From contig JAGLYZ010000002.1 of the NCBI GenBank assembly GCA_023131895.1, positions 176,474 to 240,473 of the forward strand: 64,000 nt of DNA. The letters are read 5' to 3'. This document shows, in pieces, positions 11,433-48,250 of this stretch. Under the pieces are notes generated by a model that saw only the letters and a list, made by a program, of their open reading frames with translations, was not told where the DNA came from and did no database searches. The position numbers and the translations under genes were made by a program. Every line of letters starts with the position of its first letter. The stretch's first letter is position 1. The stretch comes from Candidatus Parcubacteria bacterium. Lineage in GTDB: Bacteria > Patescibacteriota > Minisyncoccia > Minisyncoccales > JAGMDC01.

Positions 11433-11459
11433 TTATCTCTTTCTCCACTGCGGAGCGCG
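11433..11459. repeat. 27-bp direct repeat, copy B (true 3' end of rpsI)
   Basis: Encodes ...APQWRKR-stop of S9. Identical to 10895-10921. Confidence 0.9.
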
Positions 11460-11936
11460 GCGGGCTCGCTTAAGTCCGAATTTCTTCCTTTCCCTCATTC
11501 TAGGATCCCTAGTTAAATGGCCTGCTTTCTTTAAACGTTTTCTAAAATCCGAATTAAATTTAACTAACGCGCGCGCTATCCCGTGTCTTACTGCTTCAGC
11601 TTGGGAATGAAAACCGCCTCCTTTTACTAAAACCTGAATCTTAAACTTGTCCTCACTTTTCATTTTATCTAAACTTTCACCAGCAATTTTTTGCGTTTCA
11701 AAATCAGGGAAATAATCTTTTAATGCTTTATTATTAACAAAAAACTCTTTCTCGCCTCTTGTCCAAACCCTCACTCGAGCAACTGATGTTTTTCTTCTTC
11801 CAATGGCCTCTATATAGGAGGAAGAGACCTTTTTAGGTTTTTTTTCAATTATTTTAGAAGCGCTTTTTTCCTTCTTTTTGACTTCTTTCTGCTTTTTTGG
11901 TTCTTTAGTTATTTTTTTAGGTTTGATTTTCTCCAT
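11433..11936 (-). CDS. rpsI: 30S ribosomal protein S9 with Lys-rich N-terminal extension
   Basis: IGRRKTSVARVRVW...GGGFHSQAEAVRHGIARAL...RRAPQWRKR; follows rplM. Confidence 0.9.
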   Translation of the reverse strand: MEKIKPKKITKEPKKQKEVKKKEKSASKIIEKKPKKVSSSYIEAIGRRKTSVARVRVWTRGEKEFFVNNKALKDYFPDFETQKIAGESLDKMKSEDKFKIQVLVKGGGFHSQAEAVRHGIARALVKFNSDFRKRLKKAGHLTRDPRMRERKKFGLKRARRAPQWRKR

Positions 11937-11941
11937 AAAAA

Positions 11942-12289
11942 TTATTGAATTTTTAAACGTTTTATTATCTTAGCGCGTAATCTATTTTTAGGCAGCATTC
12001 CGAAAACTGCTTTTTTTAAAACTTCTCCAGGACTTTGTTCAAAAAGATCTTTTAAGGGCGTTTCTTTTAAACCACCCATAAAACCTGTATGATGATAGTA
12101 AACTTTCTGCTCTATCTTCTTACCTGTAAATTTAATTTTATCAACATTTTTTACAATAACAAAATCTCCTATATCTTTATTATATGTAAAATCAGGTTTG
12201 TGCTTGCCACGCAAGAAAACTGCGATCTCAGTCGCTAAACGACCGAGAACCTTATTAGTGGCATCGATTGTATGAGTATTTCTCTTCAT
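11942..12289 (-). CDS. rplM: 50S ribosomal protein L13
   Basis: DATNKVLGRLATEIAVFLRGKHKP...YYHHTGFMGGLK. Confidence 0.9.
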   Translation of the reverse strand: MKRNTHTIDATNKVLGRLATEIAVFLRGKHKPDFTYNKDIGDFVIVKNVDKIKFTGKKIEQKVYYHHTGFMGGLKETPLKDLFEQSPGEVLKKAVFGMLPKNRLRAKIIKRLKIQ

Positions 12290-12314
12290 AAATTAAAAAC
12301 TAAAAAGTATTTCT

Positions 12315-12339
12315 GCGAAGAAAACAAATTTTTCAAATT
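12315..12339. repeat. Family-3 motif (copy 2)
   Basis: gcgaagaaaacaaatttttcaaatt, directly after the rplQ stop. Confidence 0.65.
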
Positions 12340-12690
12340 CTACTTAACTAATTCTATTATCGCCATCTTTGTTCCGTCTGATTTTCTAATTCCTAATTTT
12401 ATAATTCGAGTATAGCCACCATTCCTCCCCTTATATCTTGGTCCAATATCATCTATAAGTTTCTTAACTATTTTAGGAGCAAAAAACTTGGCTAATAATC
12501 TTCTTGCAGCCATTGTTCCTTTTTTTGCTTTGGTAATATTTTTCTCAACAAATTTGGAAACTTCCTTGCTTTTTACTTCAGTTGTTTTTATTTTCTCATT
12601 CAAAATAAGAGCACTTGCTAAAGTTTTTAAAAGCGCTTTCCGCTGATCTTTTTGCCTATGAAATTTTCTACCTTCTTTTCGTTTTCGCAT
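12340..12690 (-). CDS. rplQ: 50S ribosomal protein L17
   Basis: MRKRKEGRKFHRQKDQRKALLKTLASALI...GGYTRIIKLG. Confidence 0.9.
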   Translation of the reverse strand: MRKRKEGRKFHRQKDQRKALLKTLASALILNEKIKTTEVKSKEVSKFVEKNITKAKKGTMAARRLLAKFFAPKIVKKLIDDIGPRYKGRNGGYTRIIKLGIRKSDGTKMAIIELVK

Positions 12691-13468
12691 TATACTTTTT
12701 CTTTTTTATGGCTGGTTTCTTTGCCTTTGTAGGTTTCTCTTTTTTCGCTGGCTTTTCGGTTTCTAATGGCTTCGGCTTTTCTTTTTCTTGAAAAATATCT
12801 GTAAGTAAGGAAAAATGTTTCTTTAAAATTTCAGAGGACTGGAATAGGGCTTGCTCCGGAGTAATAGTCCCATCTGTCTCAATCTCTATTTTTAAACTGT
12901 CAAAATCCGTCCTTTCCTCTACCATAACATTTTCTATATGGAAGGACACTTTTCTCACTGGTGTAAAAATTGCATCAAGAGGCATTTCACCTATTTCCAA
13001 TTTCTCTTTTTTTCTCCATTCTACCGGCTCATAACCAAATCCTCTCTCAACTAAAATTTCCATTTCTAATTCTGCTTTCTTATCTGTTAAAGTAGCCATA
13101 AAAGCATCTTTATTTATTAAATCTAATTGAGCCGGCAATTTAAAGTCAGAACCTTTTACTTTTTTCTCGCCCTTTATAGAAAGAACTGCTCTTTGCGGCT
13201 CATCACTATGAATCTTAAACCTTAATTGTTTTAAATTTAATAAAATTGAAACCACATCCTCTAAAACACCTGGGATAGTTGAAAACTCGTGGGAAATTCC
13301 TCTAATTTTTACTTGAGTAACCGCAGCACCAGGCAAAGAAGAAAGTAAAACTCTCCTTAAAGCATTTCCAACAGTAACACCGTAACCAGGATAAAGAGCT
13401 TCTATTTGAAAACGAGCCCAGTTGTCTTTTTTTTCAATAATTTTTATTTTATTAGGTAAAGAAATCAT
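12668..13468 (-). CDS. rpoA: RNA polymerase alpha subunit, N-terminal domain only, with Lys/Pro-rich tail
   Basis: GYGVTVGNALRRVLLSSLPGAAVT...; 266 aa. After about residue 228 only EKEKPKPLETEKPAKKEKPTKAKKPAIKKKK. Overlaps the rplQ start by 23 nt. Confidence 0.85.
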   Translation of the reverse strand: MISLPNKIKIIEKKDNWARFQIEALYPGYGVTVGNALRRVLLSSLPGAAVTQVKIRGISHEFSTIPGVLEDVVSILLNLKQLRFKIHSDEPQRAVLSIKGEKKVKGSDFKLPAQLDLINKDAFMATLTDKKAELEMEILVERGFGYEPVEWRKKEKLEIGEMPLDAIFTPVRKVSFHIENVMVEERTDFDSLKIEIETDGTITPEQALFQSSEILKKHFSLLTDIFQEKEKPKPLETEKPAKKEKPTKAKKPAIKKKKYNAKTKRR

Positions 13469-13569
13469 AAAATCATTTTAACATCTAAACATTTAAGCAT
13501 CTTAACATATAAACATAATTTAAATTCAGAATGTTAAAATGTTAGAATGTTTGAGTGTTAGTATGCTAT
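13469..13569. repeat. Family-1 palindromic intergenic element
   Basis: aaaatcattttaacatctaaacatttaagcatcttaacat ... atgttaaaatgttagaatgtttgagtgttagtatg; rpoA-rpsD spacer. Confidence 0.8.
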
Positions 13570-14196
13570 TTATCTTGAATAATACTCAAAAATTACAGAA
13601 ATCTCGGCAGGAAAATCTGACTCATCCATTAATGGTTCTTCCTTAACTTTTGCTTCTAGCTTTTCTAAATTGAGTTCTAACCAGGCAGGAAGCTGATATT
13701 TTTTCAAAGCAGCAGGAAGTTTCTGAAAAATGTTTAGTTTCAAAGAAGAAGGATGAATAGTGATTTTGTCTCCTTTCTTTAATTTGTAAGAAGGTATATT
13801 AACTTTCTTTCCATTAATTAAAAAATGTTGATGGGAAACCATTTGTCGAGCTTGAGAACGGGAAGAAGCCCATCCTAATTTAAAAATTACATTATCAAAA
13901 CGGCTCTCTAACTCTTTCATAAGAAAGGTTCCTGCATCCTCTACTTTCCCTCTTTTTCCTAATGCTTTTTTTACGTATTTGCTGAATTGCTCTTCTTTTA
14001 GATTATACCAATTTTTAAGTTTTTGTTTTTCTTTTAATTCCTTGCCGTATTCAGAAATAGATTTTCTTCTTTTAATTCTTTTGCCAGGCGGATAAGGCCT
14101 TTTTATCATAGCGCATTTAGTAGAGAAACATCGCTCTCCTCTTAAAAAAAGCTTGACTTCAGCTCTTCTACAAATTTTACATTTTGCGTTAATCAT
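13570..14196 (-). CDS. rpsD: 30S ribosomal protein S4
   Basis: Start set at MINAKCKICRRAEVKLFLRGERC (zinc-type N-terminus); S4 domain SRSQARQMVSHQHFLINGKKV. Confidence 0.9.
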   Translation of the reverse strand: MINAKCKICRRAEVKLFLRGERCFSTKCAMIKRPYPPGKRIKRRKSISEYGKELKEKQKLKNWYNLKEEQFSKYVKKALGKRGKVEDAGTFLMKELESRFDNVIFKLGWASSRSQARQMVSHQHFLINGKKVNIPSYKLKKGDKITIHPSSLKLNIFQKLPAALKKYQLPAWLELNLEKLEAKVKEEPLMDESDFPAEISVIFEYYSR

Positions 14197-14212
14197 TTTA
14201 ACATTTATGATT

Positions 14213-14665
14213 TTATACTCTTCTTGCCTTTCTAGGCCTGCACCCATTATGAGGTATAGGTGTAACATCCTTAATAGATAAAATATCAAAACCTCTGCTT
14301 GCTAAGGCTCTTATTGCTGAATCTCTGCCACTGCCAACGCCTTTTACTATTATTTGAATTCTTTCTATTCCTATTTTTTGAGCCCGTTGGATTAATGCTT
14401 CAGCGACTTTTGAAGCGGCAAAAGGGGTAGCTTTTTTTGTTCCCCTAAAACCGATATTGCCAGCGCTTGCCCAGCTTAATATATTTCCCTGCAAATCAGT
14501 CAGTGTAATAATAGTATTATTATAAGAAGAATAAATACAAACTCTGCCTTCGTTTATTTTTCTGGAAGGTTGAATCTTTGTCTCTTTTTTTACAGCAGCA
14601 TCTACTTTTTCCTTTTCTTGAATCAGCTCTTTTTCTGTTTTTTGAATAATACGTTTCTTACCCAC
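14213..14665 (-). CDS. rpsK: 30S ribosomal protein S11 with N-terminal extension (GTG start)
   Basis: GRVCIYSSYNNTIITLTDLQGNILSWASAGNIGFRGTKKATPFAA... Confidence 0.9.
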   Translation of the reverse strand: MGKKRIIQKTEKELIQEKEKVDAAVKKETKIQPSRKINEGRVCIYSSYNNTIITLTDLQGNILSWASAGNIGFRGTKKATPFAASKVAEALIQRAQKIGIERIQIIVKGVGSGRDSAIRALASRGFDILSIKDVTPIPHNGCRPRKARRV

Positions 14666-14755
14666 AGAAGCATACTAACATATTAACATACTAACATATT
14701 AACAAAATGTAAATTCAAAATGTTAAAATGCTTAAATGTTAGAATGTTAGAATGA
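14666..14755. repeat. Family-1 palindromic intergenic element
   Basis: catactaacatattaacatactaacatattaac ... atgttaaaatgcttaaatgttagaatgttagaatg; rpsK-rpsM spacer. Confidence 0.8.
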
Positions 14756-15145
14756 TTATTTTGCTGTTGGAGGCGGTTTTCTTCCGCTACCAACTGTTTT
14801 TCTTACATTGCCGCGAACAGTCCTATTATTGCTTTTAGTTCTTTGGCCTCTAACTGGTAAATTTTTAATATGACGGATACCCTTTAAGCAACCAATGTCT
14901 TTTAAGCGCTTTATGGCAACTATTCTTTCGCGCCTAAGGTCTCCCTCAATTTTATATTTCTTTTCAATGGCTTCTCTAAGCGCGTTAATCTGCTCTGGAC
15001 TCAATTTAGAAGCAGGAATATAATGGTCAATCTCTGTTTCTGTCAAAATTTCTTTAGCCAAAGAACGGCCTATTCCATAAATATAGGTTAAAGCAATTTC
15101 TATTTGTTTGTTTTCCGGGATATTTATCCCTGCTATACGTGGCAT
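14756..15145 (-). CDS. rpsM: 30S ribosomal protein S13
   Basis: MPRIAGINIPENKQIEIALTYIYGIGRSLAKEIL... Confidence 0.9.
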   Translation of the reverse strand: MPRIAGINIPENKQIEIALTYIYGIGRSLAKEILTETEIDHYIPASKLSPEQINALREAIEKKYKIEGDLRRERIVAIKRLKDIGCLKGIRHIKNLPVRGQRTKSNNRTVRGNVRKTVGSGRKPPPTAK

Positions 15146-15149
15146 GTTT

Positions 15150-15266
15150 CTACCCTTGGCGTTGTTTATGCTTCGGATTTTTAGAACAAATAATATAAAC
15201 TCGCCCTTTTCTTCGGACGACTTTACAATCTTTACACATTTTTTTCACCGATGACCTAACTTTCAT
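15150..15266 (-). CDS. rpmJ: 50S ribosomal protein L36
   Basis: Own translation (too short for the track): [38 protein letters not shown]. Confidence 0.85.
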
Positions 15267-15290
15267 ATCTTATAAATAAACACTAATTAA

Positions 15291-15359
15291 AACCACTAAT
15301 TCTCACGAATAAGTATTTGGATATATCCGCGATTTTTATTCGTGATTCTATTAGTGGTT
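15291..15359. repeat. Unique long hairpin between infA and rpmJ
   Basis: aaccactaat/attagtggtt and tcacgaataa/ttattcgtga are two perfect 10-bp stems around a loop of about 23 nt. Confidence 0.7.
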
Positions 15360-15360
15360 G

Positions 15361-15594
15361 CTATTTCCCTCTGTATACAATCCTGCCTCTATTTTCGTCA
15401 TAAGGACCCATTTCTATTGTTACCTTATCACCAGCTAAAATTTTAATTCTATACATACGCAACCGGCCGGCAAGATAAGCAATTATTTCCCTTCCGTCAT
15501 CTAACTTTACTTTAAATTTTAAACTAGGTAAAGTTTCTAAAACTATTCCCTCTATTTTTGTTTTATTTGAATTTTTGTTATTTAAATTCCCCAT
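15361..15594 (-). CDS. infA: Translation initiation factor IF-1
   Basis: IEGIVLETLPSLKFKVKLDDGREIIAYLAGRLRMYRIKILAGDKVTIEMGPYD (S1-like fold pattern). Confidence 0.9.
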   Translation of the reverse strand: MGNLNNKNSNKTKIEGIVLETLPSLKFKVKLDDGREIIAYLAGRLRMYRIKILAGDKVTIEMGPYDENRGRIVYRGK

Positions 15595-15624
15595 CTGGTA
15601 TTAAGATTAACAAATTTTATAAAG

Positions 15625-16863
15625 CTAGTCAAGTTTAATTTCAATATCAATTTTTTCTGTATCTTTTGGAATTTTTTTAAGCCAAAAAGGCCAAAGTTCA
15701 ATCTGAAAAGCGGTAATCTCTTGCTGATTTTCTAAAAGCACCTTTGCTTCATCAAATAATTTATCGCTTAAAGCATCTTTAAAAGCTAAAATATCAAGAG
15801 CAGGATAAATATTAGCTGAAAAATCTAAGGAAAGATTAACTTTACTGGCTTCTGAATTAATCGTTTGAATAGAATAACTGATTTGCACGCTTTCATTGTG
15901 CAACTTTTTATCTGCTGAAATCTGAGAAGAAATTGTATTTTTAACAAAATCCCTAAGATTTTGCTTTTTGAATGTTAATGCCTTTGACTTTAATTTCACT
16001 TTATAATTAAATCTTTCTGCTTCTGTTTCTGCTTGAATTGATGAAGATGATTCTATGATCTCTTGCTTTAAGGTTTTCTCTAATAAATAGTATTCTGGTT
16101 CCGCCTTGAGTAATAATGTCTTTTTAGTTTCTTTTTTTAAGCTGTCCAACAAGGCCTTTTCTGCATTTTCTAAATCTGCTTCAGTAACCTGAGCAACTAT
16201 CCCTCCGCCTGCCATTGGAGAAAATGATTTAGCGTAAAAAAAAGTAAATTTGGAGGAACCGGCAAACCCAGGAATAGAGAAAGTTGTCGGCTCAATATTA
16301 TAATCTTCACCAGGCTGGTCAGCAATAATTTCAACATCAATCTGGCCAGGAACCAGCTTGCCTTTTTCGTAATGGCCTCCTGGTATTACTATTTTCTTAG
16401 GCGTGCGAAACAGCTTTCCAGACGCAGAAACAAATCTTGTTGTTGCCACTAAAACCTGTGAAGAAGTAGAATAAGCATTATAAACACGGGCTATGCCTTT
16501 TGCTTTTTTAGAAACAGAACCAGTCGCAGAAAATTCCTGAACTATTTCTTTTTCTTCTTCCATTATTTCTCCTGAGATAATCTTATTAGAAAAATCGCTA
16601 TCTTTAGTATTTAAATTTATGGTAATATTATCTTCAAAACTTAATAATTCTTTTTCCGGCCATATTTCTATTTCTGCTTTAGAAAAAGTGATGTGTATGA
16701 AAACACCTAAAAAAATAAAAGCAATTAGCAGAAATATAAGTTTTTTTGGAGACAAAAAAGCAATCTTCTCTCTCTTTTTAGATAAGCCATCTTTTTTCTT
16801 AATCAAAATGCTGTCTATACTTTCTTTTTTTGGAGGAATAATATCAAATATCTTTTTAGACAT
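15625..16863 (-). CDS. Membrane-anchored hypothetical protein (412 aa)
   Basis: Long ORF with one N-terminal TM helix (LIFLLIAFIFLGVFIHITF). No family recognised. Confidence 0.5.
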   Translation of the reverse strand: MSKKIFDIIPPKKESIDSILIKKKDGLSKKREKIAFLSPKKLIFLLIAFIFLGVFIHITFSKAEIEIWPEKELLSFEDNITINLNTKDSDFSNKIISGEIMEEEKEIVQEFSATGSVSKKAKGIARVYNAYSTSSQVLVATTRFVSASGKLFRTPKKIVIPGGHYEKGKLVPGQIDVEIIADQPGEDYNIEPTTFSIPGFAGSSKFTFFYAKSFSPMAGGGIVAQVTEADLENAEKALLDSLKKETKKTLLLKAEPEYYLLEKTLKQEIIESSSSIQAETEAERFNYKVKLKSKALTFKKQNLRDFVKNTISSQISADKKLHNESVQISYSIQTINSEASKVNLSLDFSANIYPALDILAFKDALSDKLFDEAKVLLENQQEITAFQIELWPFWLKKIPKDTEKIDIEIKLD

Positions 16864-16881
16864 AAAAATATAATTTTTTCA

Positions 16882-18701: not shown

Positions 18702-18759
18702 AGCTTTATTTTATCAAATTTTACCAAAAATAAAAGACCTTACTGGCCTTAATTTTTTT

Positions 18760-18860: not shown

Positions 18861-20357
<1,497 letters not shown>

Positions 20358-20364
20358 TTTGATT

Positions 20365-20383
20365 CGGGACAACTCTAAAAAAC
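20365..20383 (-). other. 5' half of the pre-16S processing stem
   Basis: cgggacaactctaaaaaacc, complementary to 18760-18779. Confidence 0.65.
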
Positions 20384-20433
20384 CAATTTTATTATTCAAT
20401 TATCAACGAACTTTCCTTGTTCCTTCTATTTTC

Positions 20434-20462
20434 ATTGTATCAATTAATAAAATCTTTGTCAA
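20434..20462 (-). promoter_or_regulatory. Putative 16S rRNA promoter
   Basis: Minus strand TTGACA, 17 nt, TACAAT, about 75 nt upstream of the 16S 5' end. Confidence 0.55.
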
Positions 20463-20498
20463 TTAAATAATCATACTCTAAATCTGCTTTGTTCTTTC

Positions 20499-20888
20499 CT
20501 ATTCCGCAATATCGGGGTGAAAATCAACTTGATATTCTGGTATGCCAAGCGAAATACCGTAACGTTTCGCTTCGTCATGTTGTTCTTTGCTTGTTCGGTC
20601 AATGTAGAAAATTTTGTTCCGGAAAATAATATAGGCGTAAGTTTTATTTTTGAAATCGGCATACCACGAGCCGCCATGATCACGATCTAATGATTGGCTA
20701 ATTTCTTCGGCTATATCTCTTGCCTCATTTTCCGGTATCTCAACAGTGTGTAAAGTCCATTGCGAAAGCCATGGTGTTTTATGTTTGGTCGTAACTTGTT
20801 CAACTTTCGTTGAGATAATCTTTACTTTTTTAAGAACCTTCTTATTTTCAAGAGATTCTTCAATGATAACGCCTTTATAATCTGTCAT
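20499..20888 (-). CDS. Hypothetical protein (129 aa)
   Basis: Clean ORF MTDYKGVIIEESLENKK... No family recognised. The overlapping 20471..20683 track ORF is rejected. Confidence 0.5.
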   Translation of the reverse strand: MTDYKGVIIEESLENKKVLKKVKIISTKVEQVTTKHKTPWLSQWTLHTVEIPENEARDIAEEISQSLDRDHGGSWYADFKNKTYAYIIFRNKIFYIDRTSKEQHDEAKRYGISLGIPEYQVDFHPDIAE

Positions 20889-21015
20889 AATTTTTATACT
20901 ACTTGAAATTTTATTCTATAGGAAATGGACTATTCCTATATTCCCAGTTTTTTATAAATTGTGAATATTCCCTCTCAAGCTCTAAATAATCTTTTTTTAT
21001 TAGAAATTTTCAAAA

Positions 21016-21086
21016 AGCCTCCTGTCAGAATTGGACTGACGTCTATGGTTTACAAAACCATTGCTCTGCCACTAAGCTAAGGAGGC
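21016..21086 (-). tRNA. tRNA-Thr (anticodon UGU), no encoded CCA
   Basis: GCCTCCT-TA-GCTT-AGTGGCA-GAGC-A-ATGGT-TTTGTAA-ACCAT-AGAC-GTCAG-TCCAATT-CTGAC-AGGAGGC-T folds as a cloverleaf. Confidence 0.8.
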
Positions 21087-21568: not shown

Positions 21569-21704
21569 AATAAAAACAAGTTAAAAGTAGAAAGTCAAAA
21601 GTCATAGTTAAAAATTAAAAGTTAGAATTCAAGAAAAAATTTAATAAATTAAACTTTTAACTTAAAACTTTAACTTTACACTTTTCATTTTTAACTTTTA
21701 ACTA
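21569..21704. repeat. Family-2 palindromic intergenic element
   Basis: aagttaaaagtagaaagtcaaaagtcatagttaaaaattaaaagttagaattcaag ... cttaaaactttaactttacacttttcatttttaacttttaact. Confidence 0.8.
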
Positions 21705-23115: not shown

Positions 23116-23152
23116 AATAGTTTTAATATATCATCACTTTGAAAAATAATCA

Positions 23153-23186
23153 AGACATTGACTTTTTTGTCTGGTTTGGTAGAAAG
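23153..23186 (+). promoter_or_regulatory. Repeated promoter-like box, copy 1
   Basis: agacaTTGACTtttttgtctggtttggTAGAAAg; 33/34 identical to 24092-24125. Confidence 0.5.
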
Positions 23187-23258: not shown

Positions 23259-23990
23259 ATGGTAGATATCGTAGATGCATTAAAGTATGTTGAAAAAATT
23301 AGTAAAAAAAGCGGTTATATTGGAATAGAAAACACAGAAGAAGAGGGATTGCATATTATTGGATTAGACCCTACAATGACACTTCTCTATGATATGGAAA
23401 TAGATAATATAATCTTGAATGGAAAAACAGACAATATTAGTGGAGAATTAAAAATTGCTATTGAGATACCGCCAACGATTAAAAAGGGCTCTATATTAGA
23501 AATTAGAAACAGAATGTGGCCAAGAATTATCGCTGAACAATATGATGGCAAACTAAAGATAAAGGAAGGCATTGACATAATACCCAATAAACATTCTTCT
23601 GCATTAAGAAAAGCTATGAAAAACATAAAACGCCAACTTCCAGACCCTACAGAGATAATCATTGACGCCCAGATACTCAAGAGAATACTAAGGTTAACAA
23701 GTAGAAAGTGGAAGATAAAAATAAAAACAGAAAACGGTATTAGCATGGTTTTCTATAAACTAACTGGCATGAATTGGAAGACAGCAACCACTATTGGAGA
23801 AGAGATAGAATTAAAGTGTCAAACCAAAATCAAAGGTAAGATAAACGAAGATGTCGCAATAGAGTATAGATACCTAAAAAAGATAGTGCCATTATTGTCA
23901 AATCATTTATATTTGGCAACAAAACCAAACTTTTCAACATATATAGGGACAGAAACAGGAATAGATCTTTTAATAGCACCTATAACATAA
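23259..23990 (+). CDS. Hypothetical two-domain protein, possibly sliding-clamp (PCNA/beta-clamp) fold
   Basis: Start at MVDIVDALKYV after AAGGAGGTGA. C-terminus VAIEYRYLKKIVPLLSNHLYLATKPNF...GIDLLIAPIT resembles clamp C-termini. By-eye similarity only. Confidence 0.35.
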   Translation: MVDIVDALKYVEKISKKSGYIGIENTEEEGLHIIGLDPTMTLLYDMEIDNIILNGKTDNISGELKIAIEIPPTIKKGSILEIRNRMWPRIIAEQYDGKLKIKEGIDIIPNKHSSALRKAMKNIKRQLPDPTEIIIDAQILKRILRLTSRKWKIKIKTENGISMVFYKLTGMNWKTATTIGEEIELKCQTKIKGKINEDVAIEYRYLKKIVPLLSNHLYLATKPNFSTYIGTETGIDLLIAPIT

Positions 23991-24395: not shown

Positions 24396-24454
24396 ACTCG
24401 CCCTGAGCTTGCCGAAGGGTTGATTTCTTAAAATATTTTTGTTACTATAATATT

Positions 24455-24682: not shown

Positions 24683-25435
24683 ATGACTGATGAGAACGAA
24701 TCAAAAATTGACTCAGTAATTATAGAAATCAGGGCTGGGGCTGGAGGAGAAGAAGCTGCTTTATTTGCAGCTAATTTATTTAGAATGTATACAAGATATG
24801 CTCAAAATAAAGAATGGAAACAAAAAATTTTAGATTCCCAAAGAACAGAACTTGGCGGATATAAACAAATAACATTTGAATTAAAAAATGAAGAGGCCTG
24901 GCCTCAAATGAAATATGAAGGAGGAGTTCATAGAGTTCAAAGAATTCCAGAAACAGAAAAAGGGGGGAGAACGCACACTTCCACGGCAACTGTAGCTGTT
25001 CTGCCAAAATCAAAAAAAACTCAAATTAAAATAGATTCAAAAGATTTAAAAATTGATATTTACAAATCTTCCGGGCCAGGAGGACAAAACGTCAACAAAA
25101 GAGAAACAGCAATTAGAGTAACCCACTTGCCTACTGGAATAATAGTCACATCTCAAACAGAAAGAAACCAGTTAGAAAATAAAGAAAATGCTTTAAGCAT
25201 TCTGGAGGCACGGCTTTTAGAAAAAAAACAAAGAGAAGAAGAAGAGAAAATTAAAGGAACAAGAAATGCCCAGATTCATGCGGCGCAAAGGGCAGAGAAA
25301 ATTAGAACTTATAATTTTCCTCAAGACCGTATTACTGACCATCGCATAAAAAAATCCTGGCATCATATTGAAAAAATTATGGATGGAGAATTAGACAAAA
25401 TGGTTAAAACTTTAGAAAAAAATCTAAAAAATTAA
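24683..25435 (+). CDS. prfA: Peptide chain release factor, RF1-type, lacking the N-terminal domain (250 aa)
   Basis: RIPETEKGGRTHTS (PxT-type codon-recognition loop) and SGPGGQNVNK (GGQ). The protein starts at the region equivalent to RF domain 2. Confidence 0.75.
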   Translation: MTDENESKIDSVIIEIRAGAGGEEAALFAANLFRMYTRYAQNKEWKQKILDSQRTELGGYKQITFELKNEEAWPQMKYEGGVHRVQRIPETEKGGRTHTSTATVAVLPKSKKTQIKIDSKDLKIDIYKSSGPGGQNVNKRETAIRVTHLPTGIIVTSQTERNQLENKENALSILEARLLEKKQREEEEKIKGTRNAQIHAAQRAEKIRTYNFPQDRITDHRIKKSWHHIEKIMDGELDKMVKTLEKNLKN

Positions 25436-27546: not shown

Positions 27547-27638
27547 AATCGCTTCGCTTTCATTTTAACATTTAAACATATTAACAAAAAATAAATTTAA
27601 AAATGTTAAAATGTTAGTATGTTAATATGCTAAAATGA
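27547..27638. repeat. Family-1 palindromic intergenic element
   Basis: cattttaacatttaaacatattaac ... atgttaaaatgttagtatgttaatatgctaaaatg. Confidence 0.8.
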
Positions 27639-27854
27639 TTATTCTTTAATATGGATACACTGCGCCGGGCATCCTTCAGCTGCTTCTTTGGCGCAATCAA
27701 TTTCTTTAATTTCTAATTCTTGTTCTTCTGAATCATCTTCAGTACCCTTAAGATGCGGTTTATTATCTTCTCCAATCTCAAAATATCTCGGGCATACTGC
27801 CTGGCATGCCCCGCATCCAACACATTTTGATTTATCTAAAATAATCTTTGGCAT
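27639..27854 (-). CDS. Small 4Fe-4S ferredoxin
   Basis: CVGCGACQAVCP ... CAKEAAEGCPAQC. Confidence 0.8.
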   Translation of the reverse strand: MPKIILDKSKCVGCGACQAVCPRYFEIGEDNKPHLKGTEDDSEEQELEIKEIDCAKEAAEGCPAQCIHIKE

Positions 27855-27903
27855 AATGCTTGTGTATTGTATCAGAATATAAGCAGAAAAGTCAAGAAAA
27901 TTC

Positions 27904-34358: not shown

Positions 34359-34394
34359 TAAATTATTTTAGCACAAAATTGAAAATAAAAACAG

Positions 34395-37306: not shown

Positions 37307-37354
37307 GTTCGCTTACGCTCAAGTTAAAAATTAAAAGTGAAAAAGTAAAAAGTT
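37307..37354. repeat. Family-2 half element with GC-rich start-proximal box
   Basis: gttcgcttacgctcaagttaaaaattaaaagtgaaaaagtaaaaagtt, directly upstream of the secY ATG. Confidence 0.7.
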
Positions 37355-37442
37355 GCGAAGAAAACAGATTTTTCAAATTCTGGGGCGTGGGCGCGGCGAA
37401 GCCCGAAGGAGGGCTGAATTTGAAAAATTTTGTTTTCATAGC
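37355..37442. repeat. Family-3 complete inverted pair around a GC-rich core
   Basis: gcgaagaaaacagatttttcaaattc + tggggcgtgggcgcggcgaagcccgaaggagggct + gaatttgaaaaattttgttttcatagc. Confidence 0.75.
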
Positions 37443-37457
37443 AAATGATTTAGTTTC

Positions 37458-39317: not shown

Positions 39318-39409
39318 AAATCATTTTAACATTTTAGCATTTAAGCATTTTAACATAATAAATTAAAATTTTGTTTAAATGTTAGCATGTTTGTATGTTT
39401 AGATGAACT
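39318..39409. repeat. Family-1 palindromic intergenic element
   Basis: Right-hand 59 nt or so (cattttaacataataaattaaaattttgtttaaatgttagcatgtttgtatgtttagatg) identical to the 39800-39894 copy. Confidence 0.85.
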
Positions 39410-39799: not shown

Positions 39800-39894
39800 A
39801 AAAATTCATTTTAACATTTTAACATTCAAACATTTTAACATAATAAATTAAAATTTTGTTTAAATGTTAGCATGTTTGTATGTTTAGATGCAAA
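39800..39894. repeat. Family-1 palindromic intergenic element
   Basis: aaaaattcattttaacattttaacattcaaacattttaacat ... atgttagcatgtttgtatgtttagatg. Confidence 0.85.
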
Positions 39895-40645: not shown

Positions 40646-40729
40646 TTTAACATTTTAACATTTAAGCATTTTAACATTTCTGATTTTATTTTTTGTTAAT
40701 ATGTTAGTATGCTTAAATGTTAGTATGAT
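40646..40729. repeat. Family-1 palindromic intergenic element
   Basis: tttaacattttaacatttaagcattttaacat ... gttaatatgttagtatgcttaaatgttagtatg. Confidence 0.8.
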
Positions 40730-42961: not shown

Positions 42962-43068
42962 GTTCGCTATCGCTCAAGTTAAAAATTAAAAGTGAAAAAT
43001 TAAAAATTATTTATTAAAACTTTTAACTTCTAACTTTGACTTTTAACTTCTAACTTTAAACTTTTAAT
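42962..43068. repeat. Family-2 palindromic intergenic element with GC-rich start-proximal box
   Basis: gttcgctatcgctcaagttaaaaattaaaagtgaaaaattaaaaatt ... aacttttaacttctaactttgacttttaacttctaactttaaactttt. About 80 nt nearly identical to 43909-44018. Confidence 0.85.
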
Positions 43069-43578
43069 TTAGAAGGCTTTTCGCCTAAATACTCTTTTCA
43101 TGCCTTGTGTTATTTTTGGCACATATTTCTCTTTCGTATCCTTTGGCTTTGGTTGTTCTGGTTTGACAGTTGTTTTTTCTTCCTTCTCTATTTTCTCATC
43201 TACAACTTTCTTTTCTGTTTTCTTAACCTTTTTAACTTTTTTCTTTTTAATCTCGCTTAATTCTAAAGAAATATGAGAACTCTTTTTCTGAATTTCAGCA
43301 GCTCTTCCTCTTGACTGAGCATGCCATCTTTTTAGCTTCGGTCCTTCATCAACAAAAATCTTTGAGATATAAAGATTATCTTCTTCAAGCTGAAGATTAT
43401 CTTTAGCATTAGCTATACTTGACTTCAAGAGTTTTAATAACGGCTCAGACGATCTATTCGGCGTGAAATTTAAAATCCTTTGAGCTTGCTCAACTGATTT
43501 TCCCCTAATCAAATCAACCATTAAACGAACCTTTCGCGGCGCAATATGAAGATATCTTAGTTTGGCTGTAATGTTCAT
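43069..43578 (-). CDS. rplV: 50S ribosomal protein L22 with a 55-aa or so Lys-rich C-terminal extension
   Basis: AKLRYLHIAPRKVRLMVDLIRGKSV... Confidence 0.9.
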   Translation of the reverse strand: MNITAKLRYLHIAPRKVRLMVDLIRGKSVEQAQRILNFTPNRSSEPLLKLLKSSIANAKDNLQLEEDNLYISKIFVDEGPKLKRWHAQSRGRAAEIQKKSSHISLELSEIKKKKVKKVKKTEKKVVDEKIEKEEKTTVKPEQPKPKDTKEKYVPKITQGMKRVFRRKAF

Positions 43579-43590
43579 ATAAACAAAATA

Positions 43591-43908
43591 TTAAGATGAT
43601 TTATCTTTTTCGGTTTCTTGCTGTTTTGTTTTTATTTCCTGCTCTTTCTGTATTTTTCCCCCATGCCTTACAAATTTTTTTGTTGGAGCAAATTCACCTA
43701 ACTTATGCCCCACCATATCCTCTGCAACTAATACTGGAATATGCTCCTTGCCGTTATGAACGCCAAATGTAAAACCAACCATTTCTGGAGATATAGTGCA
43801 AGCTCTCGCCCAAGTCTTAATAATTACTCTGTCGCCTTTCTTGAACTTGCTTATTTTTTTTAATAATTTTTCGTCCACATATGGACCTTTTTTCAGAGAT
43901 CTAGCCAT
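43591..43908 (-). CDS. rpsS: 30S ribosomal protein S19
   Basis: [19 protein letters not shown]...HNGKEHIPV. Confidence 0.9.
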
Positions 43909-44018
43909 GTTCCTTCGCTTCGCTCAGTCAAGTTAAAAGTGAAAAATTAAAAATTATTTATTAAAACTTTTAACTTAAAACTTTGACTTTTAACTTCTAA
44001 CTTTAAACTTTTAATTTT
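43909..44018. repeat. Family-2 palindromic intergenic element with GC-rich start-proximal box
   Basis: gttccttcgcttcgctcagtcaagttaaaagtgaaaaattaaaaatt ... aacttttaacttaaaactttgacttttaacttctaactttaaactttt. Confidence 0.85.
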
Positions 44019-44852
44019 TTAGGTTTTTTTCTTCTTCTTTCGTCTCTTGATAATAAGCTTGTCTGTCCATTTTTTCTTTCTTGTTTTTACCCCTAATGCA
44101 GGTTTCCCCCAAGGCGTTTTCGGATGCTTCATTCCAATTCCGGTTCTTCCCTCTCCGCCTCCATGAGGATGGTCAACAGGATTCATTGCTGATCCTCTAA
44201 CATGCGGCCTTCTGTCCTTATAACGGCTCCTGCCTGCTTTTCCTATTTTAACATATTTATATTCAGGATTTGAAACCATTCCTATTGAAGCAAAACATTC
44301 CATTGATACTTTTCTAATTTCAGAAGAAGGAAGAACAAGATGAGTATATCCTCCTTCTTGAGCCAAAACTCTCGCTGTGGTGCCTGCTCCTTTTACAATA
44401 AGCCCTCCTTTGCCTGGCTCAAACTCAATATTATAAACTAAGGTTCCTATTGGAATGTTTTTTAATTTCATTCTGTTTCCCGGCTTAAACTCTCCTTTCT
44501 CTGAAATAACAATCGTATCATCTACTTTTAATCCCTGAGGAGCGAGAATATATCTTTTCTCCTTATCTTCATATTCTAAAAGAGCGATAAAAGCAGAGCG
44601 ATTAGGATCATATTCTAAAGCAACAACTTTTGCTGGAATATTAATTTTTTCCTGGCTGAAATCAATGTGGCGATACATTCTTTTTGCGCCGCCGCCTCTA
44701 TGCCTTATAGTAATTCTCCCTTGTAAATTCCTTCCTCCTCTTTTTTTTAATATTGAAATTAAACCTTTTTCAGGTTTTTTCTTGTTTAATTGAGGAGATT
44801 CAATTTTGGTCATGCCTCTCCTTCCCGGTGTCGTTGGTTTATACTTCTTCAT
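44019..44852 (-). CDS. rplB: 50S ribosomal protein L2
   Basis: [11 protein letters not shown]...[18 protein letters not shown]. Confidence 0.9.
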
Positions 44853-44857
44853 ATATT

Positions 44858-45328
44858 TTATCTTGGCAATAATTCTATCTTTTGGCCTTTTTTTATTTTT
44901 ACAATTGCTTTTTTATATCCTTTTTTCCAACCAAGAATTCTACCTCTCATCTTTTTTTTCCTAGGGATACTAACAGTCCTAACATCTAAAACATCAACTC
45001 CATAAATACCTTCTACTGCTTTTTTAATCTCTTTTTTGTTTGATTTGGGGAAAACTCTAAAAATATATTTATTTTCTTTAGTTAAATCAGTCGCTTTTTC
45101 AGAAATATGAGGTTGCTCTAAAACCCTCCAAGCCTGCCCGACTCCGTCTGAACGAGGTCTTGGCGGACGGGCTAAATCTACTTTCTTTTTCGGTTTTTCT
45201 TCCTTTTTTTCTTTTTCAACAACTTTAGGTTCAACTTCTTTTTTCTCTTTAACTTCCTTTTTTTCAGCAATCTTAGGTTTTTCTTCAATTTTTTTCTTCT
45301 CTTTTTTAAAAAAATCAAATAATTTCAT
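44858..45328 (-). CDS. rplW: 50S ribosomal protein L23 with a 60-aa or so Lys/Glu-rich N-terminal extension
   Basis: The core [32 protein letters not shown] starts near residue 75. Confidence 0.85.
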
Positions 45329-45329
45329 A

Positions 45330-45974
45330 TTAAGATTTTACAAATGTTTCTTTTATTACTTTTATTGACTCTTTCGGCATAATCAAATATTTATAATTTA
45401 AAATATCAAGGCAATTTAATTCTTTTGCTTGAATCGTCGCTAATTTAGGAATATTTCTTGCTGATAAAATTACATTTTTATCCATCTTTGGCAAAGCGAT
45501 TAAAACGCTCTTTATTTTTTTCTTATCTGGCTTGACTAAATTATCTCTTATGACTTTCATCTCTCTTGTTTTCGCCTTATCAATTTTTAATTCATCTAAA
45601 ATAATTAATCCTTTTACTTTTACTTTTTGGCTCAAAACCATAAAAAGAGCTTTTCTTTTCATTTTCTTGGGAATTATTTTTTTAAAATCTCTCTCTTTAA
45701 CAGGACCAAAAGTAATGCCTCCTCCTCTCCATAAAGGCGAACGGATAGAGCCTACTCTTGCCCTGCCAGTGCCTTTCTGCCTCCACGGCTTTCTGCCGCC
45801 TCCTTTAACCTCGCTTCTGTCTTTAGCGTGCGCGCTATTCTGCCGCCTGTTTGCCATTTGCGAAACAACCACCTGATGAACCAAATCAGAATTAAAAGCA
45901 ACCTCAAAAATCTCTTTTGGCAATTCAACTTCTTCTTTCTTCTCGCCTTTTTGATTGTAAAGATTAATTTTCAT
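45330..45974 (-). CDS. rplD: 50S ribosomal protein L4
   Basis: KGGGRKPWRQKGTGRARVGSIRSPLWRGGG. Confidence 0.9.
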   Translation of the reverse strand: MKINLYNQKGEKKEEVELPKEIFEVAFNSDLVHQVVVSQMANRRQNSAHAKDRSEVKGGGRKPWRQKGTGRARVGSIRSPLWRGGGITFGPVKERDFKKIIPKKMKRKALFMVLSQKVKVKGLIILDELKIDKAKTREMKVIRDNLVKPDKKKIKSVLIALPKMDKNVILSARNIPKLATIQAKELNCLDILNYKYLIMPKESIKVIKETFVKS

Positions 45975-45991
45975 AAATAACTGTTCTCGAA

Positions 45992-46606
45992 CTATACTCG
46001 GATTTCCAGCAAGGTGCCGCGATGACCTGGTATTGCGCCTTTCACTGCTAATAGATTATTATCTTTATCAATTTTGACTATTTTTAAATTCTTAACTGTA
46101 ACTCTTTCAGCTCCCATTCTGCCAGGCATTTTTCTTCCCTTAATAACCCTTTCCGGGAAAGAACTTCCTACTGAACCTAATGTTCTTTGTTCATGCTTCA
46201 CTCCATGAGTGGCATTTCTTCCATGGAAACCCCATCTTTTCACTGCTCCTTGAAAACCTTTTCCCTTGGAAATACCGGAAATTCTTACTTTATCTCCTTG
46301 TTCAAAAATTGAAACATCTATCTTATCACCTATTTTTAATTCCTGTTTGTTATCTAAAGATTTAGCGAAAGCGGGCTTAAACTCTCTGATATATTTAAAC
46401 TCTTTTCCTTTCATAGTTTTCTTAATTTTTTTTTGCTTGGTAATTTTTTCAAAACCAATCTGAATCGCTTCATATTTATCCTTTTCTTGCATTTTTATCT
46501 GTGTAATATAACAAGGTCCAGCCTCAATTAAAGTTATTGGAACCTGCTTGCCTTTTTCGTCAAAAAACTGACTCATCTCCAATTTTTTTCCTAAAATAAA
46601 TTTCAT
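45992..46606 (-). CDS. rplC: 50S ribosomal protein L3
   Basis: GKGFQGAVKRWGFHGRNATHG. Confidence 0.9.
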   Translation of the reverse strand: MKFILGKKLEMSQFFDEKGKQVPITLIEAGPCYITQIKMQEKDKYEAIQIGFEKITKQKKIKKTMKGKEFKYIREFKPAFAKSLDNKQELKIGDKIDVSIFEQGDKVRISGISKGKGFQGAVKRWGFHGRNATHGVKHEQRTLGSVGSSFPERVIKGRKMPGRMGAERVTVKNLKIVKIDKDNNLLAVKGAIPGHRGTLLEIRV

Positions 46607-46620
46607 ATTTTACTTAGATT

Positions 46621-46649
46621 TAATTAAAAACCGGGTATAGCCCGGTTTT
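46621..46649 (-). terminator. Terminator-like hairpin between rpsJ and rplC
   Basis: Minus strand AAAACCGGG-CTATA-CCCGGTTTT followed by TAATTAA. Its function (attenuator or terminator) is unknown. Confidence 0.45.
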
Positions 46650-46677
46650 CTGCCTTGGCCGATATTTTTATTTTATA

Positions 46678-47016
46678 TTACATCTTGATTTCAATTTCTA
46701 CACCAGCTGGAAGAGTCAAACTAGTTAAAGCATCAACAATTTTGGGATTTGGATTAAGAATATCAATCAAACGTTTATGAACCCTCATTTCAAACTGCTC
46801 TCTGCTATCTTTATGAATAAAAGAAGATCTATTCACTGTATATTTATGAATTTCAGTAGGTAAAGGAATGGGACCATAAACTTCAACACCATAGCGCTCG
46901 ACTGTTTCAACAATCTGCCTAGCGCTATTATCAATAACTTTATGATCATAAGCCCGCAACTTAATACGAAGTTTGGACTTAATCTCTTCTTCAACTGCTT
47001 TCTTTTTTGTAGCCAC
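46678..47016 (-). CDS. rpsJ: 30S ribosomal protein S10 (GTG start)
   Basis: [22 protein letters not shown]... Confidence 0.9.
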
Positions 47017-47050
47017 GTTTATTTTAAACTTTTAAGTTCCTGCTTTTGAT

Positions 47051-48250
47051 TTACTTAATAATCTTTGTTACTACTCCAGCACCAACAGTTTTACCTCCCT
47101 CCCTAATAGCAAATCTTTGCTTTTCTTCAAGAGCAACTGGAGCAATTAATTTAATCTTTAAGGTAACCGTATCTCCTGGCATAACCATTTCTGTCCCTTC
47201 TGGCAGAACAACATCACCAGTAACATCAGTGGTTCGAATATAGAATTGAGGCTTATAGCCAGTGAAGAAAGGAGAATGCCTTCCGCCTTCTTCTTTGCTT
47301 AAAATATAAACCTCGCCTTCAAATTCAGTATGAGGTGTTATACTGCCTGGCTTAGCCAAAACCTGCCCCCTTTCAACTTCTTCCTTTTTTAAACCCCTAA
47401 GCAAAATACCAACATTGTCACCTGCCCTTCCTTCATCCAGCATTTTATTAAACATTTCAACGCTTACTACGACTGTTTTCTGAGTAGGTTTAAAACCAAT
47501 AAGTTCTACCTCCTCATTTGGATGCACTACACCTCTTTCAATCCTGCCAGTAGCAACAGTTCCTCTTCCAGCAATAGAAAAAACATCCTCAATAGCCATT
47601 AAAACTGGCTTATCAATATCCCGGACTGGTTCAGGGAAATAATCATCTACTGCTTTGACTAAATCTAAGATGGGTTTTGCTGCCTCTTCATCAACTGACT
47701 TTACCTCTAATGATTTAATAGCTGAACCGCGAATCACTGGAACTTCATCACCAGGAAACTTATATTTCTTTAAAAGCTCCCTTACTTCTGATTCCACTAA
47801 ATCAATTATTTCAGGGTCGTCTACAGTGTCGCATTTATTTAAAAACACTACTATATTTGATAATCCTACCTGACGGGCAAGTAAAATATGCTCTCTGGTT
47901 TGAGGCATAACGCCGTCAGCCGCAGAAACAACCAAAATAGCGCCATCCATCTGCGCGGCTCCGGTAACCATATTCTTAATATAGTCAGCGTGGCCAGGAC
48001 AATCAATATGGGCATAATGCCTCTTCTCTGTTTCATACTCCAAATGAGAAATATTAATAGTTAAGCCGCGCGCTTTTTCCTCTGGAGCAGAATCAATCTG
48101 ATCTACTGCTTTTTCTGAGGCCTTGAATCCCTTTAATCTTAAAATGTGCAGTATAGCTGCAGTAAGAGTGGTCTTGCCATGGTCTACATGACCAATGGTG
48201 CCAATATTAAGATGAGTTTTTCCTCTTTCAAATTTTTCTTTCTCAGCCAT
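47051..48250 (-). CDS. tuf: Elongation factor Tu
   Basis: [18 protein letters not shown] and NKCD GTPase motifs; 399 aa. Confidence 0.95.

Follow-up and report, generated by a model that had tools for sequence, protein, structure and literature searches.

Gene content of the window and classification of gene starts

We analyzed 64,000 nt of a metagenome scaffold from an ultra-small Candidatus Parcubacteria bacterium (GenBank assembly GCA_023131895.1, contig JAGLYZ010000002.1, positions 176,474 to 240,473; hereafter, the window), with attention to the sequences that precede its start codons. Its AlaS matches a protein from a Candidatus Parcubacteria bacterium at 100% identity, and the nearest relatives, among the matches listed, are metagenome-assembled genomes of the Minisyncoccales. 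The window has a GC content of 33%, and almost all of its genes lie on the minus strand. It carries the S10-spc-alpha ribosomal-protein clusters, rpsL-rpsG-fusA-tuf, tsf, rpsB, frr, infA and alaS, together with one complete 16S rRNA gene and one tRNA gene. An earlier inspection of the letters by themselves (the sequence-only reading) had proposed that the core genes here lack a Shine-Dalgarno (SD) sequence and carry a -10-like box just before the ATG, a layout of the leaderless type.

We curated 85 genes, 46 of which are core translation or transcription genes, and assigned start codons by conserved N-termini, not by the longest open reading frame (ORF). An SD was defined as GGAG or GAGG at -20 to -5, and a full promoter as a -35 element, a spacer of 15-19 nt and a -10 element scoring at least 7 bits. 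Genes lying ≤25 nt from the upstream gene, or overlapping it, were classed as coupled, and a strict start-adjacent class was set by a rule on a promoter close to the start. This divided the 85 genes into 29 that are coupled and have no promoter (21 core), 12 under the strict start-adjacent rule (6 core), all with an ATG start, nine preceded by one kind of repeat element (type A; 7 core), six preceded by another (type B; 3 core), eight with a long canonical SD, every one accessory, and 21 left unclassified (7 core, including rpmJ and infA). Several unclassified genes (infA, the gene at 8799, MBL and h55) have a bare -10 box 6-9 nt from the start. The start context is A/U-rich in every class. 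U occupies -1 in 63% of genes, and A is favored at -2 and -3, where G occurs in only 1-5% and C in 4-7% of genes. For promoter statistics, the window was pooled with the related loci L082, L084, L085 and L087, giving 166 genes, or 151 after genes with repeat elements were dropped. A scan of genome contigs by AlaS alignment gave, among the matches listed, one further useful relative, L002, the rest being nearly all from distant taxa.

Loss of the anti-SD and scarcity of SD sequences

The 3' end of the 16S rRNA gene, GGAUCAUUACAUUU, reads ...GUGGAUCAUUACAUUU, and CCUCC is found neither in this tail nor within the 150 nt downstream, in line with the earlier supposition of a ribosome without an anti-SD. 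The 16S tails of relatives read CUACAUUUU and UUUCAUUUU (three related lineages), and no anti-SD is present in L085, L086, L087 or L089, the last being a contig that bears type A arrays and has the tail AAUUAUUUU / AAUUAUUUUU. The ends of the three related lineages were recovered via a spurious antisense ORF that gene callers set over the 3' end of the 16S gene. Because the relatives also have CCUCC-less tails, the loss is, as far as these tails tell, lineage-wide; it arose through point changes (CCUCC to UUACA). That Parcubacteria have lost the anti-SD has been reported before. The available portions of Tsurumaki et al. (2022, RNA, PMC9297842) give the anti-SD as missing in about half of Parcubacteria, and those of a 2024 study (PLoS One, PMC10783764) list Wolfebacteria, Campbellbacteria and SR1 among 'SD-scarce organisms lacking CCUCC' (class iv).

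As had been claimed, GGAG and GAGG are missing from the -20 to -5 interval of all 46 core genes, and likewise from that of the 12 genes with a start-adjacent promoter. The nearest SD-like case among the core genes is that of rpsE, at -23 and within the rplR coding sequence. In all genes other than the array genes, upstream regions pair with the actual 16S tail no better than background (-1.6 to -2.0 versus -2.1 kcal/mol in coding controls). Related array-bearing contigs are likewise SD-poor, with SDs at roughly 5% of ORFs (a tally of per-locus counts).

Eight of the 85 genes do carry SDs. All eight are accessory genes with a raised GC content, and they encode a GGR-like oxidoreductase, a TPR protein, an MNT nucleotidyltransferase and five hypothetical proteins. 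Their SDs (e.g. AAGGAGGTGAT) would pair with a canonical tail at -11 to -18 kcal/mol, despite the CCUCC-less 16S rRNA of this organism. GC content is 0.38 in these genes versus 0.34 elsewhere, and GC at third codon positions (GC3) is 0.33 versus 0.26; L087 has one such gene too. The raised GC and GC3 suggest that the eight genes were acquired horizontally in recent times.

Promoters close to the start codons of operon-head genes

Extended -10 boxes of the form TGnTAnnnT peak sharply 6 nt before the true ATG. In the pooled set, which counts some orthologues more than once (GT2 three times, rpsB twice), 12 of 166 genes have a box at this position, or 7 of 151 without the genes that follow repeat elements, compared to an expectation of 0.25-0.32 per position from internal ATGs or upstream positions 10-40 (P ~1e-8). 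There are 14 full promoters whose -10 element ends 3-13 nt from the ATG, versus 2.2 in dinucleotide shuffles, and 0 of 100 shuffles reach 14. For the window by itself, the corresponding figures are 5 and 1.1 (P ~0.01). Counted over the whole region, promoter-like matches do not exceed those in shuffles (72 versus 64 ± 8), and only position-specific tests are informative.

The promoters at operon heads are of the sigma-70 type, TTGAyw-17-TAnnnT, often TG-extended, with the -10 element ending 6-13 nt from the ATG. They are seen at rpsB, rpmE, rpmB, rpsL, alaS, GT2, pgeF, the gene at 8799, the ferredoxin gene, the gene of a Phd-like antitoxin and infA. The extended -10 begins with TGTTA at rpmE, infA, frr and MFS, none of which follows an array. 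Box and spacing are kept in orthologues while the flanks diverge, as seen for rpsB (9 and 8 nt), rpmE (6 and 8 nt), alaS, GT2 and the gene at 8799. A spacing of exactly 6 nt is retained for alaS in the window, L002 and L082, and for GT2 in three genomes (Table 1). By contrast, boxes are absent from coupled internal genes of the same base composition.

L002 has two copies of a perfect TTGACA-16-TATAAT promoter, one ending 4 nt and the other 8 nt from an ATG. Together with the promoter of the 16S gene in the window, these sequences show that the standard sigma-70 consensus is in use. The L002 promoter is part of a duplicated 45-nt segment (4395-4440 and 5275-5310) that precedes rpmJ (4 nt) and, within an inserted module, a 74-aa gene (8 nt).

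All 12 of the box-spacer-ATG strings quoted in the sequence-only reading are present at the genes named. Those of rpoA, tuf, rplF and rplE do not count as independent events, since a single repeat family supplies all four as its terminal units. At frr, the box reads TTATAT and has no A at the key position 2. All told, a box at 5-13 nt is found in just about 13 core genes out of 46, comprising six independent cases (strict rule) and seven type A genes, with the rplY box lying 15 nt off.

Transcription usually starts 6-8 nt beyond the -10 element, and the start positions that we infer rely on this gap. Given the enrichment of this spacing and its conservation among relatives, operon-head genes are most naturally read as leaderless or near-leaderless, and they would then be expressed from mRNAs with little or no leader. 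We consider it likely that start-adjacent promoters do operate at operon heads.

Octamer arrays before nine genes of the window

The TGTTAAAAT boxes of rpoA, tuf, rplF, rplE, rpsH and rplY are units of 8-nt tandem arrays, (ATGTTAAA)n. Variants of the end unit of the same arrays precede holB, rpsK and an adenylate-kinase-like (adk-like) gene, bringing the number of genes to nine. Each array in the window is mirrored by an inverted array, (CATnnTAA)n, which begins 0-4 nt after the upstream stop codon, so that all nine type A copies are palindromes of ~85-100 nt that fill the whole stop-to-start spacer. As RNA, each would form a long hairpin interrupted by internal loops at regular intervals (z-scores of -3 to -7 in most copies), leaving the last unit and the start codon unpaired. 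At rpoA the predicted fold has an energy of -21.9 kcal/mol (z = -3.7). L002 has an orthologous, shorter element at rpoA, and the palindrome of the rpsK site is absent there.

The end unit always reads TGTTA[A/G][A/T]AT, and the 8-nt register of the repeat extends to the start codon. Seven of the nine copies place the last good unit 5-6 nt from the start (5 nt in two of them), and the others place it at 8 nt (rpsH) and 15 nt (rplY). By our own count, perfect TGTTAAAATG units are more numerous in the 3' arms than their complement is in the 5' arms (13 versus 5). No sense-over-antisense folding advantage due to G.U asymmetry was found for the type A elements (3/9), and selection on these hairpins at the RNA level was rejected on this basis. 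No Rfam family matches the elements at the gathering threshold, either in the window or in 20 array-bearing loci that we scanned.

Arrays in metagenomes

A metagenome scan for the pattern ATGTTAAAATGNTTNNATGTTAAAATG returned 94 stretches. Two of the array contigs encode SecY and L15 that are 65% and 56% identical to the window proteins. An inverted partner arm is present in only 24 of 73 unique arrays; the other 49 are single-armed. The start of a sense ORF lies ≤40 nt downstream of 39 of 69 unique arrays, compared to 7 of 69 in the reverse-orientation control. The TGTTAAwAT nearest to the ATG is 5-6 nt away in 15 cases and 14 nt away, or one extra unit, in 21, of which 16 are pilins. The genes that follow are mutually unrelated, and include type IV pilins, SerRS, class V FBPase, pyrophosphatase (PPase), Obg, PilC, PilB, FtsA, HU, YmdB, SecY and L15.

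One array stands before a tRNA gene. At L129 (4207-4281), it consists of five 16-nt units, the last of which stops 5 nt short of the mature 5' end of a tRNA-Arg (4286), suggesting that this tRNA is transcribed with little or no 5' leader. At that distance from a tRNA, a ribosome-binding role is impossible for the array, and only a transcriptional one makes sense.

Type B elements

Another family, type B, consists of 7-nt repeats, (AAAAGTT)n, a loop and (AACTTTT)n, and then a conserved CTTGAGCGATAGCGAAC or AGCGAAGCG motif that abuts the start codon. It lacks a -10-like box. There are five full palindromes of this kind in the window. Type B favors the sense RNA fold via G.U pairs in 4 of 5 elements. 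Coordinates of both families and of the promoters are collected in Table 1.

Table 1. Coordinates of the 16S rRNA gene, start-adjacent promoters, repeat elements and SD-bearing genes in the window; numbers of nt give the distance from the -10 element, box or end unit to the start codon
Feature	Position	Strand	Details
16S rRNA gene	18861..20357	-	Rfam full-length match, 1438.7 bits
16S 3' end	18874-18861	-	reads GGATCATTACATTT; CCUCC anti-SD absent
16S promoter TTGACA-17-TACAAT	20434..20462	-	sequence read
rpsB promoter TTGATT-17-(TGA)TATATT, 9 nt, ATG	23116..23153	-	L087 orthologue: same hexamers, 8 nt
rpmE (L31) promoter TTGATT-17-(TGT)TACTAT, 6 nt, ATG	24420..24454	+	L087 orthologue: TTGATT-16-TATAAT-8-ATG
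rpmB (L28) promoter TTGCCA-17-TAATAT (53514-53542), 8 nt, ATG 53551	53514..53550	+	divergent from M50 promoter
rpsL promoter TTGACA-17-(TGT)TAAATT, 13 nt, ATG	52750..52791	-	
alaS box TGATAAAAT, 6 nt, ATG	18702..18716	-	L002 identical; L082 TATCAT, 6 nt, ATG
GT2 glycosyltransferase box TGCTAAAAT, 6 nt, ATG	34359..34373	-	L082, L084: TGCTATCAT, 6 nt, ATG
pgeF-like gene box TTGTAAAAT, 6 nt, ATG	7620..7634	-	
Gene at 8799: TATAAT, 6 nt, ATG	8787..8798	+	L082, L084 orthologues: GATAAAAT, 6-7 nt, ATG
Ferredoxin promoter TTGACT-18-(TGA)TACAAT, 11 nt, ATG	27855..27895	-	
Type A palindrome, rpsD/rpoA gap: (CATnnTAA)n, loop, (ATGTTAAA)n	13469..13569	-	TGTTAAAAT 13475-13483, 6 nt, ATG
Type A palindrome, rpsK	14666..14755	-	end unit TGTTAGTAT, 6 nt, GTG; z = -4.2
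Type A palindrome, rplF	39318..39409	-	TGTTAAAAT 39323-39331, 5 nt, ATG
Type A palindrome, rpsH	39800..39894	-	TGTTAAAAT 39808-39816, 8 nt, ATG; z = -3.1
Type A palindrome, rplE	40646..40729	-	TGTTAAAAT 40652-40660, 6 nt, ATG in phase with repeat; z = -7.0
Type A palindrome, tuf	48251..48335	-	TGTTAAAAT 48256-48264, 5 nt, ATG; z = -4.4
tuf canonical promoter TTGACT-16-TATTAT, upstream of palindrome	48345..48372	-	would give ~90-nt leader containing the palindrome
Type A palindrome, rplY (L25)	27547..27638	-	TGTTAAAAT 27562-27570, 15 nt (GAAAGCGAAGCGATT), ATG; z = -3.4
Type A palindrome, holB	1959..2042	-	end unit TGTTAATAT, 6 nt, ATG; z = -3.9
Type A array, adenylate-kinase-like gene	58569..58640	-	end unit TGTTAGTAT, 6 nt, GTG
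Type B element, rpsC, then CTTGAGCGATAGCGAAC-ATG	42962..43068	-	z = -5.0; sense -27.1 versus antisense -9.6 kcal/mol
Type B element, rpsS	43909..44018	-	
secY upstream intergenic region with type B element	37307..37457	-	related element before secY in L084
M50 protease: promoter TTGGCA-17-TATACT (53520-53492), 58-nt leader = 3' half of type B (53434-53491)	53434..53520	-	
Further type B sites	3051-3220; 21569-21704		window; also L084 940-1022, 1500-1565 (before secY, rplO)
GC-richer stretch, five of eight accessory long-SD genes (e.g. AAGGAGGT)	4579..11323		other three start at 23259, 24169, 55436

A model for initiation and the evidence against it

The arrays are mostly single-armed, are oriented, and stand before unrelated genes and one tRNA; they also share TGTTA with ordinary promoters. 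For these reasons we favor an oriented promoter cassette, although taken by itself the claim that the arrays are promoters is in our view about evenly balanced. The palindromic form would be a variant of the cassette.

Combining these elements, we envisage the following. At operon heads, sigma-70 promoters, often TGTTAnnAT and with the -10 element ending 6 nt (range 4-13) before the ATG, would initiate transcription at the AUG or a few bases from it, and ribosomes with initiator tRNA would recognize the AUG at the 5' end of the resulting leaderless or near-leaderless mRNA. Most internal ribosomal-protein cistrons, which start -23 to +25 nt from the upstream stop codon in an A/U-rich context with U at -1, would be translated by termination-reinitiation coupling. 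At the nine array genes, the tandem extended -10 boxes would supply a start-adjacent transcription start of their own, including inside operons for high expression, and the arrays would amount to a propagating promoter cassette with the same spacing as ordinary promoters. Where there is an inverted partner arm, the resulting hairpin may terminate the upstream transcript or mask the decoy AUGs of read-through RNA. For pilin genes, transcription would start at a decoy AUG, 8 nt ahead of the real one; this decoy opens a three-codon ORF whose UGA overlaps the real AUG (AUGA). This overall picture of start-adjacent promoters for first genes, coupling for internal ones and array cassettes seems to us moderately probable.

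Several observations weigh against it. Coupled upstream with a gap of ≤25 nt and devoid of any box are 21 of the 46 core genes. The sequence-only reading had itself cautioned that tight coupling leaves many genes no room for a promoter, and its leaderless-type layout survives for operon-head genes, where the boxes are enriched and their spacing conserved, but not as a general rule for core genes. Ribosomal-protein genes of L082 lie 1-10 nt apart without SD, box or array, which implies that a box is not needed for translating internal cistrons. Two of the nine array genes, rpsK and the adk-like gene, start with GTG, and in E. coli a GTG start is unfavorable for leaderless translation. In L002 the end unit before rpoA is TGTTTAAAT, a degenerate sequence and a poor -10, and the rpoA site of L084 has a different 8-nt-repeat hairpin, (AATTTTTC)n, without a -10-like box. 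The strong box of the pilin genes is 14 nt off, and the one at 6 nt is weak. Canonical promoters lie upstream of the type A element of tuf and the type B element of M50, so the elements can lie inside transcribed leaders. The phasing of the start codon could stem from replication slippage, not from selection on spacing. A full type A palindrome also sits inside the 16S gene of L089 (V1 region, about 10030-10125); this gene (9940-12679) is insertion-rich and 2.7 kb long. Finally, reverse-complement arrays, (CATTTTAA)n, are found 4-47 nt past the 3' ends of tRNA or 23S genes and point against those genes (L097 2479-2505, L133 869-895, L146 1943-1969 and L167 10100-10126); they may act as terminators, roadblocks or antisense promoters. 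One CATTTTAA unit follows the window's own 16S gene.

Alternative explanations

The arrays might instead be structural or selfish palindromes, akin to MITE, REP or Correia elements, with hairpins that serve as processing sites (e.g. for RNase III), stabilizers or terminators. The -10 likeness and the 6-nt spacing would then be by-products of an ATG-phased repeat in short spacers. All nine window copies are palindromic and span stop to start, most with strongly negative z-scores, and their presence varies between genomes (the rpsK site has one in the window and none in L002), as does the number of units. The different 8-nt-repeat hairpin at the L084 rpoA junction, the palindrome within V1 of the L089 16S gene, the separate promoters upstream of the tuf and M50 elements and the clear preference of type B for the sense RNA fold all fit this view. 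It does not account for the 49 of 73 arrays that have no partner arm and still abut starts in one orientation (39/69 versus 7/69), and type A hairpins show no sense folding advantage. Perfect TGTTAAAATG is kept more in the 3' arm, unrelated non-repeat promoters use the same 6-nt spacing, and one array sits at promoter distance from a tRNA. We regard structural or selfish palindromes as the main rival, although an unlikely one. Another possibility is that there is no promoter signal at all, the boxes being a by-product of an AT-rich genome and an A/U-rich, Kozak-like context, with AUGs of leadered mRNAs found in unstructured regions as in Bacteroidetes, for which SD-independent initiation has a precedent in the portions available of PMC6847099. 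The 33% GC content, the unremarkable total of promoter-like matches (72 versus 64 ± 8), the strongly A/U-rich start context (U at -1 in 63%) and the fact that the same genes are boxless in relatives are all compatible with this. Against it stand the 6-nt peak, far above both controls (P ~1e-8), the pairing of boxes with a -35 TTGAyw at 16-18 nt (14 versus 2.2), the retention of box and spacing in orthologues whose flanks diverge, and the boxless state of coupled internal genes of like composition. Absence of any promoter signal thus seems quite improbable.

The repeats might also be a replacement SD, in which the altered 16S 3' end (ACAUUUUAAAAGUG) binds the array unit UUAAAAUG and the type B sequence CACUUUUAA at a distance of 5 nt from the start. 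In favor of this, UUAAAAUG and CAUUUUAA of the 16S tail are complementary over 8 nt, the duplexes of type A genes are more stable than those of controls (-4.4 to -5.8 versus about -2 kcal/mol), and CAUUUU is common to three related tails. However, an identical array occurs with the canonical tail CCUCCUUU in L167 and with AAUUAUUUUU in L089. This lack of covariation argues that the array is not a new SD. No other window gene pairs above background, the motif is absent in L082 and L084, the 16S end would have to reach 3-9 nt beyond its E. coli homologue, and one array precedes a tRNA gene. On the basis of duplex energies and 16S tails, with neither covariation nor genome-wide enrichment, we rejected an altered SD/anti-SD pair, which we deem most improbable. 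Epsilon-enhancer-like pairing of the type A and B motifs to internal 16S sites was likewise discarded, as no complementary site was found.

With promoters next to the start codon as the preferred reading, a bolder version can be formulated. On this hypothesis, (ATGTTAAA)n is an undescribed, self-propagating promoter cassette of Parcubacteria, made of tandem extended -10 boxes, that inserts just ahead of start codons, among them those within ribosomal-protein operons and those of pilin genes. Its transcripts would have their 5' end at the AUG itself or at a decoy AUG 8 nt earlier, giving individual genes of SD-poor lineages, some of which lack the anti-SD altogether, high SD-independent expression, and the palindromic form would insulate from or terminate the upstream transcript. 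We put this forward tentatively, as a possibility that is on the doubtful side.

Relation to known systems and implications

In Actinobacteria, Deinococcus-Thermus and many archaea, leaderless genes reportedly carry TANNNT a few nt upstream of the start. The operon-head genes described here resemble them in having a -10 element ~6 nt before the ATG, no SD, a predominance of ATG and a position at the head of transcription units. They differ in belonging to a lineage of the candidate phyla radiation (CPR), the Parcubacteria, with 33% GC, in a -10 element that is usually extended (TGTTAnnAT), in a signal that is partly borne on a tandem-repeat cassette and in the complete loss of the anti-SD; here the layout is also known from sequence alone. 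To our knowledge, Actinobacteria and Deinococcus keep the anti-SD and mix leaderless with SD-led genes.

Correia elements of Neisseria and REP/BIME are short, multi-copy intergenic palindromes that can carry outward-facing -10 boxes and are transcribed into hairpins. Types A and B are similarly multi-copy inverted repeats between co-directional genes, and we know of no sequence relationship between the arrays and these elements. In contrast to them, type A arms are made of 8-nt tandem repeats, each with an ATG, and the metagenome copies are mostly single-armed and strictly oriented to the start. By analogy, the Correia/REP type may be considered the closest counterpart of the palindromic form.

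The CCUCC-less tail, the rarity of SDs and the lineage-wide loss are shared with the anti-SD-less Parcubacteria of PMC9297842 and with class iv of PMC10783764. Both papers, in the portions available, report the loss and describe no replacement signal, start-adjacent promoters or octamer arrays. For Bacteroidetes (Flavobacteriia), the available text of Baez et al. (2019, NAR, PMC6847099) describes SD-independent initiation with a Kozak-like, A-rich context and a retained anti-SD. Core genes without SDs and an A/U-rich, presumably unstructured start context are common to that system and the present one, whereas here the anti-SD is lost, other bases are preferred and there is a positional -10 signal at 6 nt.

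In the searchable literature, we found no description of start-adjacent promoters in CPR bacteria or of octamer arrays, and both the layout and the array cassette appear to be undescribed. CPR bacteria, or Patescibacteria, account for a large share of bacterial diversity, and their gene expression is almost unstudied. Unlike the loss of the anti-SD, what replaces SD-guided initiation in Parcubacteria is unpublished. The arrays precede highly expressed genes, among them those for pilins, EF-Tu, RpoA, SecY and ribosomal proteins. If the proposal is true, it would improve the prediction of gene starts and operons in CPR genomes, equip the emerging genetics of Patescibacteria with strong promoters of native origin and add a bacterial lineage in which leaderless initiation is the main first-cistron route after complete loss of the anti-SD.

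Other features of the window

The 16S gene (18861-21086 region, minus strand) is unlinked to a 23S gene and is placed between alaS on one side and a tRNA-Thr and small ORF on the other; in relatives, alaS does not adjoin the 16S gene. Segments ~40 nt upstream and ~110 nt downstream of it form a long processing stem.

Among the ribosomal-protein genes, rpmB is the plus-strand ORF 53551..53772, a weak L28 match. A 71-aa ORF at 27639-27854 was considered for this role and rejected, as it encodes the ferredoxin. The uL23 protein (rplW, 44858-45328, minus strand) has 156 aa, with a ~65-aa N-terminal extension ahead of the L23 domain; an extension of this type is known from some CPR bacteria, according to the available portions of PMC9297842. 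RpoA (12668-13468, minus strand) is just 266 aa long and matches only the N-terminal domain families PF01193 and PF01000, as do its counterparts in L082 and L084. The C-terminal domain of the alpha subunit thus appears to be missing, in which case UP-element function and class I activation would not work. The rplQ gene overlaps the 3' end of rpoA by 23 nt.

Toxin-antitoxin-like genes lie within the str operon (48394-48678 and 50909-51727, minus strand): a Phd/YefM-like antitoxin gene between fusA and tuf, and a HigB/YoeB-like toxin gene with two small ORFs between rpsG and fusA. The Phd/YefM-like antitoxin gene and h73 have start-adjacent promoters of their own. The release-factor gene after rpmE (24683-25435, plus strand) encodes 250 aa, compared to 361 aa for its L087 orthologue, and is N-terminally truncated, given that its PCRF domain begins at profile position 97. 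Terminator-like hairpins with a GC stem and a T-run are present in the rpsJ/rplC gap (46607-46677, minus strand; ccgggctatacccggttttt) and the infA/rpmJ gap (15267-15360, minus strand), and on this evidence the ribosomal-protein clusters seem to be divided into several transcription units.

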